Source: Catajapyx aquilonaris (Eukaryota). From it: 64,000 nt of DNA. Position 1 is the stretch's first letter. Each line of letters starts with the position of its first letter. This document shows positions 15,482 to 29,635 of this stretch, piece by piece. Location of the stretch: contig KZ538860.1 in the NCBI GenBank assembly GCA_000934665.2, forward strand, positions 1 to 64,000, in the 5' to 3' direction. The notes beneath the pieces are model-generated. The model did no database searches. It was not told the origin of the DNA and saw only the letters and a program-made list of their open reading frames with translations. The position numbers and the translations under genes were made by a program.

Positions 15482-16981
15482 CTAGGCGGAAATGGGATCG
15501 CTGGTGTTGTAAAAGTCTTCGGAGAGGGAGATGCAGCTGCTGCGGCGACTGGGGGCAGATGATCCCTCCTCCGCGTCCACCTCCAGGGTCAGGACGTCTT
15601 CCACCAGGTATCCACCGCTTCTTACCACCTCCAGTGGGGCAAAGTCCGGGAAGCCATACCCTTTTGCATTGCGGACGCTTACTGGGCGCTGGAAGGCCTC
15701 GCCTGTCCCGCCATTCAAACGGACCTCTTCTGACATGCTCTTGGACTGGTCGGCGTTGACCAACCTGATGTGGACACGACCCACAAATGGCCAGGTCAGG
15801 GCGGCGTCGTGCGAGGTGCGGCACAGATGGACAAAAACCGACAAGTGGGTGGGATTGTTGGATGGGTGGAGGTTGATTCGGAGGCAGACGGAATGTCCGT
15901 AAGGGTGGATGTAAAAGTGGGGGCTGAACAGGGAGCGTCCAGAGGACAGCTGGGAAAATCCAACGGCCTGCCACACAAAATGACCCATGCAGCAACGGGA
16001 CGCAGCATCTGACTGTTGGCGTACCACGATGGCCAGACTTTCCATCTGGGACGACAGTCCAGCCAAGCGTATCTGGTGCTCCGTTGCTTTCTGCTCCAGG
16101 CGAACTAGGCGTTGGTACATCTCTTTGAGGAGGCGGTCTGGATCCATCGTTCCAGACATCTTGGGCCTCACCCGTCCACAGTCCCATGAGCGCTGGCGGC
16201 GAAACTGGTAGTCGTCTGGTTCTGAAGATTCACGCTCCAGCATGGCTGCAGACAGTTGGCGGTAGGCAGAGGTGAGCAAGTTGAGATGCAGCTGGGCGTT
16301 GTGCTCCAGGTGGTCACGCAGAGTGGAGGGAGGCAGGCGGACGGGGCATCCCACACCTCTATAGTAGCAGTCGGCCAGGGCGTCCACTGCCACCACGGCC
16401 GAGACGTCCCTCTTGAAGGTGCAGGACTGGACGTGCGTGTCCATGTCCACCAGTGGGAGGGTCAGGGTGCATCCTGAGCCTGCAAAGGGGCAGCGGACTG
16501 GGGACTGGAGGATCTCGCGACGTGTGCAGTTGTCTGCGTAGAGGTCGGTCAAGGCCAGTGGGGAGCCGTCGAGTGGGCAGCGCTTCCCTTCCTTCCTGAA
16601 ATGGAACGGCACACGTGATCACATATCTCTTTCATCTCACAGTATATGGGAAAAGATAGGAAGGAGTGTGTGTAGGCTATATACTGACAGGATCCACTGT
16701 GTGATGCATCCTTTGCAGAACCTGTGTCCGCAAGGGGTGAGTGTGGGCTCCCTGAGGCAGAGGAGGCAGACGGGGCACTCGAAGCGCGAGGGTGATCCGG
16801 CAGGCGATGTGGTGAGGTCCAGCTCGTAGTCGTACCCTCCAGTGAGTGGCACTGCCTCGCCCTCCTGCCCACCGCCTTTGTCACCCTCCGATGGGAGTCT
16901 AGCTGCAGGTGGGTGCGATGTCGCTACAACATCTCCCTTTGTGGTGGTGGTGGTGGCTGCTGTGTCCTTCCTGCCACTCAT
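15482..16981 (-). CDS. TRAF6: TNF receptor-associated factor 6-like (RING, TRAF zinc fingers, coiled coil, MATH domain); exons 16981-16689 and 16595-15482
   Basis: RING FECPVCLLCLREPTLTPCGHRFCKGCITQWIL|KEGKRCPLD; LYADNCTRREIL; MATH FSPHFYIHPYGHSVCLR...LTWPFVGRV...AFQRP...KGYGFPDF. Confidence 0.9.
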
Positions 16982-17430: not shown

Positions 17431-17496
17431 TGATCCGGTGTGTTTTTTTTGTTGCACCGTGGACTGTAGCAGTGGTGTGCGTCTTCGGAAGGAAAG

Positions 17497-19047
17497 ATGG
17501 TGAGTTGTTGTGTCCGGGGGGGAATATCCTCCCTGATCGGGGCCGCCCAGGGGCCATCCGACCTCCTCTCCGACTAGGAATAACGACAATCCCTCTCTCG
17601 TTGCCCAGGCCTCCCACAAGACGTTCAAGATCAAGCAGAAGCTGGCCAAGAAGCTGAAGCAGAACAGGCCCATCCCGCAGTGGGTCAGGATGAGGACGGG
17701 CAACAAGATCAGGTCAGGATCGATGATGGGGACGGAAAAGGGGAAAAAGGGAGGGCTGTTTGCCACATATGCCCGTGCTGATGGGGAAGGGAGGCACCCA
17801 GCCAAAAGCAGGGCGGTCGGTGTTGATCGGTCAACACAGGAACGCAACCGAGTCGTGTGCACAGGATGGCCATACTCGAGAATCAGAAGTGCCAGTGTAA
17901 CCTGCCACAGGCCATGTCGTGCATAGGCACAGACCGCTTCTCGCTCCAGGGTTGCGCCCTGTGCGACACACTCGGTTGCGTTCTTACGCATCTGTAGCAG
18001 CTCGGTGCAGCTGGAGGGGTGGGTGGTGCCCCTCTCTTCTGTGCGGGCAGCCCGAAACCGGGCGTCACCCAAATGTAGGCGCACAAGCACGTGAGATTTG
18101 TGCCACCTCTGCACGCATGGGGGGTCTGCCGTACCTGGTGTCCAACAAGAATTGTGGCAGCGCACGAACTACAGTCTCTCGTGTCCCTGTGCTCGTAGAT
18201 TGTAGTTCGTGCGCTGCCGCTGCGACAATTCTTGTTGGACTGATAGTACAAGTAGCGATTTAATGTGCAGACAAGTGAGGCAGGCACTTGTGTCCCTTGC
18301 TTGAGGGAGAGACAGATTTATTTGAACAGGCACCAAATTTAAAAGTGAATCAACATTAGCACTTGATGCAGTAAATGCATTGGAAATGGGAGAGAGTGGC
18401 AGACAGGAACACGTCTAGTGTGGCTCGCCTTCATGGTGTGGATACGTGCATTTCAGGCAATCTATTGGATTTTGTAACATTCTTACACTTGCTTGCAAGT
18501 TGCGGGGCTCGAGGGAGGTCCAAAATCGCCATTTATTGTGAAAGCATGGGAGTGAGATGGCCATTGCAGCAGGGCGTTTTAAAACATTGACAAAATAGTC
18601 CAGAGGATAGGTTTGGTGTGCCAGTGATGAAGTAGTAAAAGGTCTGAGGGGTGTGTCCCCCTCTCCCTCCGTGCCCTCGCCCCTGGACTCGACCCCGCTC
18701 CCTTCAGGCTTAATGGGACAGGCGGGGTTTTCCCTGAGGGCGGACACTGGGCTTTGGCTCCCCTCCCCCTCCGCTGCCTCCCTCCTCCCTCCCTAGTGGT
18801 GTGGTTGGTTGGTGGGGCAAAAGGGGAGGGGGTGGGTGCGCTGAGGCTCCAAAGGGCCCTGGGAGAGGGGGCCGCCCCGACACGTGACTTCAAGGCGACC
18901 TGAGGCACTCTCAAACCCCCATCCCTGGAGGGTGCAATCAGCGCCACGGGAGAGAGCAGTCCTCTTGATTCTGACCGCCTTTCTTTCTCCGCCTGCAGAT
19001 ACAACGCCAAGAGGCGTCACTGGCGCAGGACAAAGCTGAAGCTGTAA
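17497..19047 (+). CDS. RPL39: 60S ribosomal protein L39; exons 17497-17499 (ATG only), 17609-17712, 18999-19047
   Basis: Spliced translation [51 protein letters not shown] (51 aa); ATG|GTGAGT donor; not in the ORF track. Confidence 0.97.
18140..18240 (+). repeat. Near-perfect 101-nt hairpin in RPL39 intron 2
   Basis: GTCCAACAAGAATTGT / ACAATTCTTGTTGGAC (16 bp) and GGCAGCGCACGAACTACAGTCT / AGATTGTAGTTCGTGCGCTGCC (22 bp, one G-U); 6-nt bulge; 19-nt loop. Confidence 0.85.
18618..18908 (+). ncRNA. Candidate intronic composite box C/D (+H/ACA hairpin) scaRNA, U87/U88-like, predicted guide for 2'-O-methylation of U5 snRNA U41 (human numbering)
   Basis: Terminal stem GTGCC 18618-22 / GGCAC 18904-08; C box GTGATGA 18624-30; guide TAGTAAAAGGT complementary to U5 loop 1 GCCUUUUACUA followed by D' CTGA 18644-47; D box CTGA 18900-03; internal pocket hairpin with ACA at 18744-46; ends 90 nt before the 3' splice site. 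Confidence 0.8.
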
Positions 19048-23532: not shown

Positions 23533-24289
23533 GGCCCTCCCTCCCGAACCTTCTTCCAGCTGTGCTTTCGTACCCCCCTTTTCCTATCTTTGCAACACAC
23601 GCTTTGTAACAATGTATGGTCGACAATGAAATGAGGAGGATGGTGAGCATCAGGCAGTGCTTTTTCATTCCATGGTTCCAGGGGTGCCACTCTTCCTTCC
23701 TTCCCCTCTAGAGAGAGAGAGAGAGAGGCCATTGGCACCACTTGAGGGGGGGATGGCCACAGAGGAGCTTCCCCCATCCGGCGAGAGATGGCGGGAGGTG
23801 GAGTCAAGTGGAAGGCTGCGGGGGGGGAACAGAGACGCCATCTGTCGGTGGATGGGACAACAAGCTCCTTGGTGGGCATCCTCCTCCCTCCCTCCCTCCC
23901 TCCCTCCCTCCCTCCCTTCCCCCCGCCTCCCCTCCCGAATGTTCCATTCCAGGCGGCCATCACCCCCAGCCAGAAGAATGCTCCTCCCGAAGAAGAAGAT
24001 GCCCAAGCCTCGGGCAGGAGAATTATAGAGAGAGACCAACAAGGCAGCAAGAAACTTCCCGTAAGAGCACTCTGAAGAGGCTGCGGCTAGAGGTACGTTG
24101 TAGCTGTGCTGCATGTACTGCAGCAATGTACTTCCCATCAGCAGGTGCAGAAGGATAAGGAATAAGCTGCTGGCCACTGGGAGTGATGCTGCTGGTGCCC
24201 CGCTGCAGCCTCCCAGCCCTGGTGGTGGCCACGATGAGGCTGCCCGTCCGGACTGGCTGCATCCTGCCGGACAGGGACTGACACCGGCC

Positions 24290-27200
24290 ATGCCCCGCTC
24301 ACCTACCAGCCATGCCGCTGCCTCCTTCTTCCTCGTGGCGGCCATCCTGCTGCTGTGGCAGGCCGCTGCTGCACCGCCGCCGCCGCCGCCTCCCCTCCTG
24401 CTCCTCCTGGCCAACAGGAAGGACATCCGGATGGTGGACGTCCACAGGCCAAAGGGAAACACCACCACCATCATCAAGGTTTGTGCCCATCCATTCCGTT
24501 GCCTGCCTTTTACACCATTCCCTCTCTCAAAAAGGACCTGGAGGAGGCGGCCGCCCTGGACTTCTACCACGAGGGCAACCTGGTGTGCTGGACGGACACC
24601 AGCCAGGAGATGATCAAGTGCTCCTCGCTGCCCTCCCCGCGCTCCACCAACGGGACCGGCATCCACAACGGGGCCTCCAACGTCACCACCGTGGTCTCGG
24701 CCGGGCTCATCTCGCCGGACGGGCTGGCCTGCGACTGGCTGGGGCAGAAGCTCTACTGGACCGACTCTGAGACCAACAGGATAGAGGTGGTCACCCTCTT
24801 CCCGCACTCCGCCCCCAGCAGGCCGCGCGGAGGAGGGTACGCCCAGCAGACGCAGCACCTGCAGAAGGTGCTCTTCTGGGAGGACCTGGACCAGCCCAGG
24901 GCCGTGGCCGTGGTGCCCTCCGAGGGGCTCATGTTCTGGACGGACTGGGGGGAGGTGCCCAAGCTGGAGAGGGCCTGGATGGACGGGGACCAGAGCTCCA
25001 GGCGGGTCCTCGTCTCCAAGGACATCTTCTGGCCAAACGGACTGGCCCTCGACTACGGGAGGAGGAGGGTCTTCTGGACGGACGCACGGCTCAAGTACAT
25101 TGCCTCGGTCGACTACGACGGGGGTGGCCGCCGGTCTGTGGTCCACGAGGGGCTGCAGCACCCGTTCGCCTTGGCCCTCAGTGCCGACACCTTGTTTTGG
25201 ACGGATTGGACCACTCGGAGCATACACGTGTGCAACACCAGTGGGGGGCAGAGGCGGACGCTGCTGGGGGGAAGCCTCTCCCCCATGGACCTCAGGGTGT
25301 TTGGAGCGGACAGGCAGCCTTACGCGGACGTCCCTTGCAAGCACGACAACGGGGGTTGCTCCCACCTGTGCCTGCCCAAGCCAAATGGACGCACCTGTGC
25401 CTGTCCAACTGGTGTGAAGCTTCTGGAGGACAACAGGACCTGTGCGGACGGTCCTCAGGAGCTTCTCCTCCTGGCCAGACGGACTGATCTGAGAGTGATA
25501 TCGCTTGACACGACAGACTACACTGACTTGGTGCTGGAGGTGGGACGAGTGCGGCATGCAATTGCGGTGGACTACGACCCCTCGGACGGGATGGTGTACT
25601 GGACGGACGACGAGGCCAGGGCCATACGTCGGGCCAGGCTGGACGGTTCGGCTCGGATGGATCTGGTGACCGCGGAGGTGGACCACCCCGAAGGGATTGC
25701 CATAGACAGGGTTGCTCGAAACATGTTCTGGACAGACACGGGTACGGACAGAATAGAGGTGGCCAGGCTGGACGGGTCCTCCAGGCGTGTGCTGATCTCG
25801 GACGGACTGGATGAACCCAGGGCAATCGAGGTGGATCCCAGTTCGGGTCGGATGTTCTGGACCGACTGGGGACGGACTCCGAAAATAGAGCGGGCCGCCC
25901 TGGACGGCTCTTCCCGCGTGACCCTCGTCCAGGAGGGGCTGGGGTGGCCCAACGGACTGGCCCTGGACGCGGAAGCAGGCAGGCTCTACTGGTGCGACGC
26001 AACGACGGACAGGCTGGAGTCGGTCGATGTGGATGGAAATGGACGGCTGACCGTGGTGGGGGAGCACATGCCCCACGCGTTTGGCCTAGCCCTGCTGGGC
26101 GACTACCTGTACTGGTCCGACTGGCAGCGGAGGAGCGTCGAGAGGGTCCACAAGGTGACTGGGACCGACAGGCGCATCATCGTGGACCAGCTGCCCGACC
26201 TGATGGGGATCAAGGCTGTTTGGACCGCCCCGGTTGACATGGGGTCAAACGCTTGTGCCGCTAACAACGGAAACTGTTCCCACCTGTGCTTGAACCGCCC
26301 GCAAGGCTACGTCTGCGCATGTCCGTCTGGCCAGGAGCTGGGAGCGGACAGGCGCAAGTGTGTGGTTCCAAGGGCGTTCCTGCTGGTGGCTCGCCGGGAG
26401 GCCATCACCCGCGTCAGCCTGAGGGGAGACTCGCCCTCGCCTGTGCCTCTGACCGGAGTGCGAAACGCAGTTGCCCTGTCTTACTCGCTGTTTGATCAGC
26501 GCGTGTACTGGGCTGATGCCGGCTCACGATGCATTGGACGTGCCTTTCTGAATGGTTCCGAGGCAGAGCGTGTGGTGGAGACTGGCCTGGACTTCCCCGA
26601 GAGTGTGGCTGTGGACTGGGTTGGACGCAACCTCTACTGGGCCGACTCCAACGCCGGACGCATCGAGGTGAGCAGGCTGGACGGCAGGTCGCGCCGGACT
26701 CTGCTGTGGGCAGGGCTGGACCAGCCGCGCTCCCTGGCGCTTGATCCGGCTCAGGGAAGGATGTACTGGGCCGAGTGGGGGCCCGGACCACGCATACAGA
26801 TGTCTGGACTGGACGGTTCCGGCCGAGCCACTCTGGTTTCCAGGACGGGCAGACCCAACTCCCTCACCGTGGACTTCTCATCCACCCGGCTCCTGTGGGT
26901 TGATCTGGATGCCAGGTCGATAGAAGCTGTGGACATCCCCAGCGGGAAAGGACGTGTCCGGATACTGTCTCTGAGCCACCCGTACGCAGTGACCTTGTAC
27001 GAGTCTGACATGTTCTGGACGGACACCAGCAGTGGAGATGTGGAACGGGCTGACAAACAGAGCGGGGCCAACCGCACCGTCGTTGTGTCGAGCAATGGGG
27101 ATGTGACTGACATGGTGGTGTACCACGCGTCCCGCCAGTTGGGCTGGAACCACTGTGCCGTCAGCAACGGCGGTTGCGAACACCTGTGCCTGGCCCTCCC

Positions 27201-29635
27201 ACCTGACCTGTCCAATGCGGACCAGTCCTACACCTTCGCCTGCTCCTGCCCAACCCACTTCCGCTTGGCACCCGACAACCGCACCTGCCTCCCACCCGTC
27301 CGCTACCTTGTCCTCAGCAGGCGGTCGTCTGTCAGCCGCCTTGTGGTTGACGAAAGCAACGAGTGCCCAGAAGCCCCCATGTCGGTCAGAGGGCTGAAAG
27401 GGGTTCAGGCCATGGACGTGGACATTGCCCGCCACGTGCTCTACTGGGTCGACTCCCGCTCCTTTGCCATTCGAAGGGCCAACCTGTCCGATCCGCTCTC
27501 CACGTCCGTGATGATCCCGGGGTCGGATGACCACCATCCGTACGACATTGCAGTGGACCCCTACACTGGCTCTCTGTTCTGGTCCTGCTCGCGGAACAAC
27601 GTGATCAACGTGACCAGGGCCGATGGGACCCTGGTTGGGTCCGTGATTGGCGGTGGATCGGACAAGCCCCGCAGCCTGGCTCTCCATCCCGCTCGAGGAC
27701 TCCTGCTGTGGACCAACATGGCATCGCCTCCCAAGATAGAGAGCACCACTCTGGACGGACTGTCGAGGGCCACTGTGGTGACGGACGTGGAGGAACCCTC
27801 TGCCTTGGCCATAGATGACTCCAGGCTGTACTGGACGGACATACCATCGCAGCGGATCGAGTCGTGCAACTTGGACGGAAGGGACAGGAGGGAGCTGGTG
27901 AAGGGCCTGGTCCATCCAGTGGCCATAGCCATTGCCGGGGATTCCCTGTACTGGGGGGACAGGGAGTCGGAGGCAGTGGAGAGGGTGGACAAGCGGACGG
28001 GTGCTGGCCGCCTGCGCGTCCTGTCCAGGCTGCAGCACCTCTCCGGGCTGAGGTCAGTGTCCCCTGCCGTGGAGGCCCACCCGTGCGACTCCTCCGGATG
28101 CTCCCACCTGTGCCTGTCCGACCCAGACAGCGAGTCCTTCCGGTGCGGGTGCCCACTGCACATGTCCTTGAAGGAGGATGGCCGCCAGTGTGGCCCTGTG
28201 CCGCCCTGTGGGGCAACTGACTTTGTGTGCAGGGACGGACGCACCCAGTGCGTCCCTGCCAGGTGGCAGTGCGACGGGCGTGCGGACTGCCTGGACGGGT
28301 CGGACGAGGAGGCCTGCCCGGCAGTTGGGGAGGACCCGCAGGACGTGCTGGTGGACGCGGACGTCGTGTCTGGAGGGATGGTCCTGCCCCCGGGGAGGGA
28401 GGAGCTGTACCCGGGGTCCAGCCGCAACACTTACATCATGGCTTCCGTCATCCCAATCATGTTCATCTGCTTCCTGTCGGCACTGGGCTACTTCTGGTGC
28501 AAGAGGTCGAGGACGGTGGAGGACTTGGACGAGGATGCGGCCCACCACCCCCTGACCCCCAAGATGACTGCGGCCCCTGCGCCTGCCCCCCTGCAGCCCC
28601 GGGGGTCGGGAGGCCACCCCTCAGCCGCCATCCCGCCCATGAGACACGCCACCAACGGAGCAGGGAGGGGCATCCACCCTGGGACGGACGCAGTCTGCAT
28701 GTCCATGCTGGACTCATCCAGTGGGCAGCGGGTCGGAGGGTCCACCACCAGCTCTGGAGGAGGCGGCGGCGCCCCTGCCGCACTGCTGGGACACCACGGG
28801 GGAGGGGCAGGCGGGAGGTACCCCAGGGAGACCCTCAACCCTCCTCCCAGCCCTGCCACGGACACCAGGTCGCAAGGGACGGACAGGTCAGTTGGCTGCC
28901 AGCTGCGGTTGGGGCCAGAAAGTGTCTAACGATGTGCATTGCAGGAACTCTGGCGTGTTTGTGGGCTACTTCCACCACTCGTCGTCCTCCGGTGGCGGTG
29001 GAGACGTGGGCGGGAGCGTTGGTTGCGTGATGGCTGCGTCTGGAGGCGAGGGCGGGGCAGGCAGCATGGTGATGGGTGGCTCCCTGCCGCACCCTTCCAG
29101 AGCCGCACACCACCACCACCAGCCGCCGCAGCACCACCGACGGCCCTACCGCCGCTACAAGAGCATGAACCAGCCCCCCCCTCCCACGCCCTGCTCCACG
29201 GACGTCTGCGACGACTCCGACTCGACCCACTACGTCAGCTGCCACCACCAGTGCCCCTGCCAGCTGCAGCACTGCTGCCACAACGAGGACGACGAGGAGT
29301 GCGAGGAGGACGGGTGCGCGGGTGGGGCCGGTGGGCCCAGGGGCCAGTGGGTGGACTTTGACGAGGGGCTGGACGACTCCTCCCCCTCCCACCACCGCCC
29401 CCACCACCGCCCCTCCCCGGCCGTCCCCCCTCCCACCCCCCGCTCCACCCGCTCCCAGTGCCCCTCCGAGGCCAGCTGCTGCCCCCACACCGCCCCAACC
29501 TCCTCCCCCTCCTCCACCGAGAGGTCCTTCCCCCTGCACCTCCACCACCGCCCCCACCACAGGAGGAACCCCCGTCGACACGTCCCTCCCCAGCCCTGCC
29601 CGTCCCCCACCAACCAGCAGCCGGACAGGTGGTGA
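24290..29635 (+). CDS. arr: Low-density lipoprotein receptor-related protein 5/6 (arrow), Wnt co-receptor; exons 24290-24478, 24535-28886, 28945-29635
   Basis: Signal peptide; [10 protein letters not shown]; four YWTD propeller + EGF units; one LDLa repeat; transmembrane segment; cytoplasmic [32 protein letters not shown]. Confidence 0.95.

Follow-up and report, generated by a model that had tools for sequence, protein, structure and literature searches.

What does the second intron of the ribosomal protein gene RPL39 carry in Catajapyx aquilonaris, and does it act on the U5 small nuclear RNA (snRNA)? The question was raised by an original prediction, made from the letters of a 64,000-nucleotide (nt) stretch of contig KZ538860.1 (hereafter the window), that a composite box C/D-H/ACA small Cajal body RNA (scaRNA) lies at positions 18618-18908 and guides methylation of U5. 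Loop I of U5 holds the exons through both steps of splicing. We conclude that 18618-18908 is very probably an intron-borne box C/D scaRNA-type guide for U5 Um41 (human numbering), the counterpart of U87/U88 and of fly mgU5-42. Its motifs, its fold, the host intron with the splice joint, a contig in a run that also carries the spliced messenger RNA (mRNA), and similarly built relatives were seen directly. The guide family to which it belongs is known from vertebrates and flies; the RNA is a diverged member that had not been catalogued, and no new kind of system.

Box C/D frame and predicted guide against U5 loop I

The elements of the predicted RNA were located in the window as listed here. X5 is a public run considered below with the host gene, and the family sequences are the six RNAs compared in the next section.

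18618..18908, + strand: whole predicted box C/D scaRNA-type RNA, 291 nt (Rfam SCARNA6 match, X5 contig, fold)
18618..18622, + strand: 5' half of the terminal stem, GUGCC (pairs with 18904-18908)
18624..18630, + strand: C box, GUGAUGA (sequence; invariant across the six aligned family sequences)
18633..18643, + strand: D' guide, TAGTAAAAGGT as DNA and UAGUAAAAGGU as RNA, antisense to U5 loop I (exact single match)
18644..18647, + strand: D' box, CUGA, abutting the guide (sequence, alignment)
18884..18889, + strand: C'-like box, GUGACU, degenerate (UGAYNN 9-12 nt before D in all six family sequences)
18892..18898, + strand: AAGGCGA in the C'-D spacer, a 7-nt complement to a U5 motif and probably no working guide (sequence)
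18900..18903, + strand: D box, CUGA (sequence, alignment)
18904..18908, + strand: 3' half of the terminal stem, GGCAC (5-bp pairing; X5 contig ends at 18908)

The terminal stem and the C, D' and D boxes of the original prediction were all found at the positions it gave. A C box of the form RUGAUGA and a D box CUGA are joined by the short terminal stem, and an antisense element of at least 10 nt ends at D', with the target nucleotide opposite its fifth position. Of the internal boxes, D' is a perfect CUGA and C' is only GUGACU.

The antiparallel partner of the guide is GCCUUUUACUA, the first nine letters of which are the invariant U5 loop I sequence. Nine guide pairs, one of them G.U, fall on the invariant GCCUUUUAC. 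A18639, the fifth nucleotide upstream of D', stands opposite the fifth loop nucleotide, which is the second U of the U tract. High conservation is described for the U5 loop I sequence 'UGCCUUUUACY' (PMC6679479), and this 9-nt portion of it has been termed invariant (PMC2784804). The 2'-O-methylated (Nm) sites of U5 are given as Gm38, Um42, and Cm46 in the fly, corresponding to Gm37, Um41, and Cm45 in human (bioRxiv 10.64898/2026.05.21.726978). These three known sites are loop positions 1, 5, and 9, and the predicted site is therefore Um41 in human or Um42 in fly numbering. The proposed 11-nt pairing with loop I, directed to U41 by the +5 rule, was thus borne out by nine pairs on the invariant loop and by a known Nm site at the fifth position.

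We estimated how readily such an arrangement would arise by chance. The guide 11-mer has one exact match in the 64 kb on both strands, against 0.03 expected, and was present in 3 of 100 shuffles. Frames running from a C box to CTGA are common on their own, with three found in the window and 1.78 expected. The guide 11-mer lies inside one of these frames, flush with D', and the D box with its 5-bp terminal stem follows 285 nt further on. By our own estimate, the joint chance of this motif set is far below 1e-5.

The original prediction also read AAGGCGA as a second guide, placed at the D box. The sequence is indeed at 18892-18898, one nucleotide from box D, and complements exactly the 7-nt U5 motif that was named with it; we estimated the chance of a 7-mer match between a 10-nt spacer and the ~116-nt U5 at ~0.03. 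A dual U5 guide, in which AAGGCGA would pair with U5 over the 5' side of loop I for a second methylation or firmer target binding, is nevertheless improbable. G18895, the fifth nucleotide upstream of D, stands opposite the first C after the loop G, which is C38 in human and not Gm37. The pairing reaches only 7 bp, of which 5 are within the invariant loop, and the conserved motif has U, not C, before GCC. The spacer from the C'-like box to D measures just 9-10 nt, the D' and D targets overlap on U5 so that one U5 cannot take both, and no such complement was found in the other five family sequences. As proposed, the second guide was not supported.

The SCARNA6 model and relatives from metagenome contigs

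At the gathering score, Rfam gave no match anywhere in the window. A local Rfam search matched SCARNA6 (RF00478) at 18619-18907, over model positions 1-265 of 265, with 29.1 bits and an E-value of 2.7e-6; the gathering score of this model is 68 bits. The check proposed with the prediction, Infernal against the Rfam SCARNA5/6 models, thus yielded a full-length match, but one below the gathering score. Given this match, the predicted likeness to U87/U88 holds in the sense of a functional counterpart. The first 30 nt of the RNA are nearly letter-identical to the SCARNA6 consensus. The model segment CCAACAG, which contains the ACA after hairpin 2, was deleted in the alignment.

One scan of metagenome contigs was performed with a pattern made of the C box, the guide, and D' only, and it returned eight loci (L001-L008). 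Two of them, L004 (116 bits) and L005 (139 bits), score above the SCARNA6 gathering score and are bona fide SCARNA6. L005 (1221-1491) and L004 (1495-1756) are tandem genes of the SCARNA6 family, 3 kb apart on one contig, the paired arrangement of vertebrate SCARNA5/6. An identical 279-nt RNA is carried by L003 (726-1004), L006, and L008, a 278-nt variant of it by L002 (1250-1527, - strand), and a 305-nt AT-rich RNA by L001 (494-798). L001, L002, and L003 either fell below the SCARNA6 threshold, at 26.5 bits, or were not listed. Seven of the eight loci have a D box accompanied by a terminal complement of 3-7 bp, 259-299 nt further on for the three loci listed by the script; the 3-bp complement of L002, L003, L006, and L008 is our own reading of the 278-279-nt RNAs. 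L007 was rejected as a relative: it is a chance match in a 671-amino-acid (aa) open frame, without a D box that has a terminal complement.

Six distinct family sequences were thus compared, namely the candidate RNA, L001, L002, L003 (identical to L006 and L008), L004, and L005; no close relative of this animal is among them. All six share a length of 262-305 nt and two hairpins inside a connector helix, neither of which the pattern demanded. GACA stands at relative position 0.43-0.52 in every one of them (as the sole GACA in four), and a C'-like UGAYNN lies 9-12 nt before D in 6/6. These shared features, which had not been asked for, are the best evidence that the layout of the insert, and not the guide alone, is homologous to that of U87/U88. 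A MAFFT alignment of the six RNAs showed invariance in the boxes and the guide only, and it did not align the insert reliably. The hinge of L002 and L003 is ACAGUA, a proper ANANNA, and these two RNAs have a second ANANNA-type motif, ACAUAA, ahead of the C'-like box.

Against the SCARNA6 description, the candidate has a 5' C box, loop I guide, and D' that are close to the consensus and to L004 and L005, and it has a two-hairpin insert in enclosing helices with an ACA-containing hinge. It does not reach the gathering score, and it lacks an ACA box after hairpin 2 within the enclosure. L003, L006, and L008 reach their 26.5 bits from the 5' 37 nt alone, indicating that nearly the whole score in the window is due to the C box, guide, and D'.

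The relatives also bear on the target. The candidate RNA could be an ordinary nucleolar small nucleolar RNA (snoRNA) whose true target is ribosomal RNA (rRNA) or another RNA, the match to U5 being incidental; RPL39 is a typical host for rRNA-modifying snoRNAs, and rat Rpl39 hosts U69 (PMC1687206). We consider this very unlikely. Bona fide SCARNA6 genes and three other diverged lineages have retained the same 11-nt guide immediately before D', a pattern to be expected only under selection for U5 loop I as the target. Moreover, a length of 291 nt is typical of scaRNAs and not of the 70-120-nt rRNA guides.

U87/U88 are reportedly composite RNAs that guide Um41 and are hosted by ATG16L1. The candidate RNA has the same order of elements as U87/U88 (SCARNA5/6, RF00478): terminal stem, C box, 1-2 nt, UAGUAAAAGGU, D', structured insert, C'-like box, short spacer, and D. 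It is also like them in its predicted target, the second U of the U5 loop I tract, in being intron-encoded, and in its two hairpins within enclosing helices with a GACA hinge; its 291 nt compare with 262-271 nt in the U87/U88-type L004 and L005. Unlike in U87/U88, the insert has no recognisable sequence similarity, the G+C content is 66% compared with 48%, a G/U-only tract is present, no ACA follows hairpin 2, ANANNA is missing, and the host is RPL39. The vertebrate-type contig carries two copies 3 kb apart, whereas the window has one.

Among invertebrates, Drosophila mgU5-42 is a scaRNA assigned to the same U5 position. It co-precipitates with WDR79 (PMC3884663) and is also listed as CR33716 or snoRNA:MeU5:U42 (PMC4053861). 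Its binding to WDR79 is accompanied by enrichment with Sm proteins (PMC3884663, PMC4053861).

The two-hairpin insert

Between D' and the C'-like box, the following features were identified by folding, an inverted-repeat search, and inspection.

18648..18667, + strand: 5' strand of the connector helix (inverted repeat, folds)
18678..18742, + strand: hairpin 1 (hp1), terminal loop UUCAGGCUUAAU (fold)
18743..18747, + strand: single-stranded hinge GACAC, with an H-box-like ACA but not ANANNA (unpaired in constrained fold)
18748..18851, + strand: hairpin 2 (hp2), a C/U-only strand pairing with a G/U-rich strand (fold)
18796..18817, + strand: G/U-only tract, 22 nt, at the apex of hp2, role unproven (sequence)
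18861..18878, + strand: 3' strand of the connector helix (inverted repeat, folds)
18879..18883, + strand: second GACAC, between the connector helix, which it abuts, and the C'-like box (constrained fold)

Folded against shuffles, the whole RNA has a minimum free energy of -155.8 kcal/mol (z -3.07). The 11-bp stem that had been described around two hairpins is present as CCCCCTCTCCC (18657-18667) and GGGAGAGGGGG (18861-18871), and the inverted-repeat search lengthened it to arms of 18 nt (18650-18667 and 18861-18878) that are 83% complementary. On its own, hp1 folds at -32.3 kcal/mol (z -2.73; 2/200 shuffles equally stable) and hp2 at -62.2 kcal/mol (z -3.71; 0/200). The SCARNA6 model also has a GACA, with which the hinge GACA was aligned at high posterior. 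On the best reading, the ~230-nt insert, comprising connector helix, two hairpins, and GACA hinge, shares a homologous layout with the H/ACA-like insert of U87/U88. We interpret it as a module for structure or localisation and not as a pseudouridylation guide.

The class assigned by the original prediction, a composite C/D-H/ACA RNA, was not upheld. ANANNA was found nowhere in the 291 nt, the hinge having GACAC in place of an H box, and no ACA follows hairpin 2. No pseudouridylation pocket was found 14-16 nt upstream of H/ACA; in the predicted folds, hp1 and hp2 show only bulges of 1-3 nt. As for the Cajal body (CAB) box ugAG, the hp1 loop has UCAG and the hp2 loop CUAG, and all four copies of UGAG are outside the loops. 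What remains is an H/ACA-like layout, two hairpins with a conserved GACA hinge.

A true composite scaRNA would assemble its insert with dyskerin, Gar1, Nhp2, and Nop10, use the hinge GACAC as H and the GACAC at 18879-18883 as ACA, and reach Cajal bodies through its NNAG loops. Several observations are in line with this. The layout agrees with the SCARNA6 consensus, down to the aligned hinge GACA, and GACA is at the hinge in 6/6 family sequences; each of the three ACA triplets in the RNA is preceded by G, giving GACA, and two are found a single nucleotide beyond a helix end. The UCAG and CUAG of the two loops fit as well, since human scaRNAs that combine a C/D with an H/ACA domain rely on CAB motifs in the H/ACA loops (PMC4041459, PMC5519232). 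We nevertheless regard a working composite as rather unlikely. In addition to the missing ANANNA, the SCARNA6 ACA after hairpin 2 is deleted in the alignment, hp2 is separated from the closing helices by just 1-2 unpaired nucleotides, and the candidate 3' ACA is outside the connector helix, a non-canonical place. Internal loops of pocket size are absent from the predicted hp1 and hp2, and NNAG in a loop is too short to carry weight. The second GACAC may be a stand-in for a displaced ACA box.

Human U85 (SCARNA10), the archetype of the composite C/D-H/ACA scaRNAs for U5, is like the candidate in being long and intronic and in having two hairpins inserted into a C/D frame; it acts on U5 loop I, the predicted target of the candidate. 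Its targets are Cm45 and pseudouridine 46. Canonical H and ACA boxes are present in U85, and two CAB boxes of its hairpin loops target it to Cajal bodies (PMC4041459); the candidate RNA lacks the canonical H and ACA boxes, and its loops contain UCAG and CUAG.

We then considered the G/U-only tract, which the original prediction had described as a GU-rich loop acting as a Cajal-body signal. The tract GTGGTGTGGTTGGTTGGT is at the place given (18796-18813), within a 22-nt G/U-only run (18796-18817), but in the predicted fold it forms the 3' strand of the apical part of hp2, paired with a C/U-only strand, and not a loop. Its best 20-nt frame has 20/20 G+U, compared with 16-18 in the other family sequences, and holds five UG. 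Folded alone, the tract gave z +0.94, and 172 of 200 shuffles were as stable. The vertebrate GU signal is described as a terminal helix of alternating G.U/U.G pairs formed from GU repeats, six UG repeats being sufficient (PMC4041459). The proposed role as a signal therefore found no support, as the tract is unique to this member, does no better than shuffles, and does not form the wobble stem of that definition (PMC4041459). mgU2-47 and U90, which have a GU-repeat wobble stem, are likewise long C/D RNAs with a GU-rich element atop an internal hairpin; unlike theirs, the tract here is of the GGU/GUU type, and its predicted pairing is with a C/U strand. The fly C/D CAB consensus, cgaGUUanUg (PMC5519232), was also tried and rejected: its best match in the candidate RNA has 6/9 specified letters, and the core GUU..UG occurred in 470/2000 shuffles.

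Host intron, expression, and place in the guide family

The host gene was defined by the features below.

17498..17500, + strand: RPL39 start codon, end of exon 1, followed by the GT of intron 1 (sequence; translation of joined exons)
17609..17712, + strand: RPL39 exon 2 (translation; X5 contig 17488-17709 running on to 18996)
17713..18998, + strand: RPL39 intron 2, 1286 nt, GT..AG, host of the guide RNA (X5 splice joint)
18999..19047, + strand: RPL39 exon 3 with the stop codon TAA (sequence, translation)

RPL39 is a three-exon gene on the + strand at ~17.5-19.1 kb of the window, and its joined exons encode a 51-aa L39. A contig of X5 carries the joint of exons 2 and 3 (17709->18996, 'cut +3') at a depth of 501, skipping 1286 nt bounded by GT..AG. 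The translation and this spliced joint confirm the predicted location in RPL39 intron 2. The 3' end of the guide RNA lies 90 nt upstream of the 3' splice site of the intron, which is near the usual placement for intronic box C/D RNAs. A second snoRNA was not found by Rfam in the remainder of intron 2, where weak microRNA-family matches fell on an inverted repeat only.

The same run contains a 280-nt contig with a depth of 11.3 whose entire length lies on 18629-18908. It has one difference, T>G at 18728, which would open one A-U pair in hp1. Since X5 has the spliced RPL39 joint, it contains sequence derived from complementary DNA. X5 is a run of unrecorded kind from a second study. Of the five runs listed, none is on record as RNA, and four may be the source of this DNA. 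Elsewhere in intron 2, X5 contigs cover only the repeat at ~18186-18250, and gaps between contigs carry no weight. The 280-nt contig is thus a good hint, though not proof, of a stable intron-derived RNA.

This contig argues against a decayed or silent copy, or a chance motif set in a GC-rich intron, that forms no working ribonucleoprotein. The sub-threshold Rfam score and the degenerate C' are what such a copy might show. However, the joint probability of the motifs is tiny, the kink-turn elements are intact, as is the guide, precisely this block is present as a contig in a run with spliced RPL39 mRNA, and the same build recurs in seven of eight independent loci. We hold a non-functional copy to be highly improbable.

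For a functional guide RNA, protein binding, processing, methylation, and Cajal-body residence may be expected by analogy with what is established for intronic box C/D RNAs. The RNA would be transcribed within the RPL39 pre-mRNA. While still in the intron, its C/D kink-turn, formed by the terminal stem with boxes C and D, would bind Snu13/15.5K, Nop56, Nop58, and fibrillarin. After splicing and debranching, exonucleases would trim the intron to the protected particle of ~290 nt. The 11 nt upstream of D' would then pair with U5 loop I, and fibrillarin would methylate the 2'-OH opposite the fifth guide position, Um41 in man and Um42 in the fly.

Several points weigh against a U5 guide of the U87/U88 type. 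The score of 29.1 bits is far under 68, and the portion contributed by the C box, guide, and D' could be explained by shared function without common descent. The C' box is degenerate. Beyond the nine pairs on the invariant loop, the tenth and eleventh guide pairs are assumed. Contigs are uninformative about the ends, strand, and level of an RNA, and X5 is not recorded as RNA.

The host gene itself had been put forward as new. No report of an RPL39-hosted U5 guide, or of a host gene for fly mgU5-42, was found in the literature searched, which was covered largely by title; nor did any paper retrieved on SCARNA5/SCARNA6 concern invertebrates, judged by title. RPL39 as a host of guide RNAs is, however, already known, as Rpl39 in mammals, seen in rat, carries the snoRNA U69 (SNORA69) (PMC1687206). 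U69 resembles the candidate as an intronic guide RNA in RPL39, but the two are unrelated in class and target. RPL39 exons were not found in the available flanks of the eight metagenome loci (best tblastn E 0.079, with a match that is not L39-like). U69 is an H/ACA snoRNA. Pfam gave no credible family for 49 open reading frames (ORFs) in the flanks of L001, L002, and L006. Within the material covered, RPL39 serves as host in this animal alone.

Other features of the intron and its surroundings were recorded as well. A nested inverted repeat at 18140-18240 in intron 2 has arms of 23 nt (96% complementary) and 22 nt (95%). It is present in very high copy, with a summed contig depth of up to 60,691 in the DNA run X1 compared with ~30 in the flanks, and many X1 and X5 contigs diverge into dissimilar sequence at ~18240-18253. 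By appearance, it is a transposon of the miniature inverted-repeat type (MITE). A mir-578 match on this repeat (29.4 bits, E 0.0056), like the other weak microRNA-family matches there, probably mirrors the hairpin only. Another inverted repeat in intron 2, at 17840-17983, has 26-nt arms that are 81% complementary with 92 nt between them, and it gave no Rfam match.

At the 5' end of the gene, the spliced RPL39 contig of X5 starts with 23 letters that are absent from the window upstream of 17488 (17465-17488), and no AG is present ahead of 17488. The 23 letters could come from another 5' exon, a spliced leader, an allele, or an assembly chimera. A TRAF/MATH gene at 15482-16618 (- strand) is head to head with RPL39. 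Farther away, the window contains an LRP-like uninterrupted open frame of 1563 aa at 24238-28929 (+ strand) and a cluster of at least six C2H2 zinc-finger open frames at 37201-63388.

The guide for one methyl mark of U5 loop I is now placed in a further animal, in a ribosomal-protein host gene. The ribose methyl marks of this loop are kept from flies to man. Tentatively, the data may reflect an ancient, animal-wide family of the U87/U88 type with a build of 260-305 nt, in which invertebrates lost the H/ACA boxes (the composite having decayed or never been complete), the gene moved between hosts, and the G/U tract here serves as a non-vertebrate Cajal-body signal; we put this forward as a possibility that is more doubtful than likely. 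The curated SCARNA6 model misses diverged members, scoring 29 bits against 68 here and 26.5 bits or nothing listed for three metagenome lineages. For annotation, a search anchored on the C box, the loop I antisense, and D' recovers the family where the covariance model fails. The six sequences raise a testable question: whether the two-hairpin insert with its GACA hinge functions as an H/ACA particle, is a relic of one, or serves in localisation.

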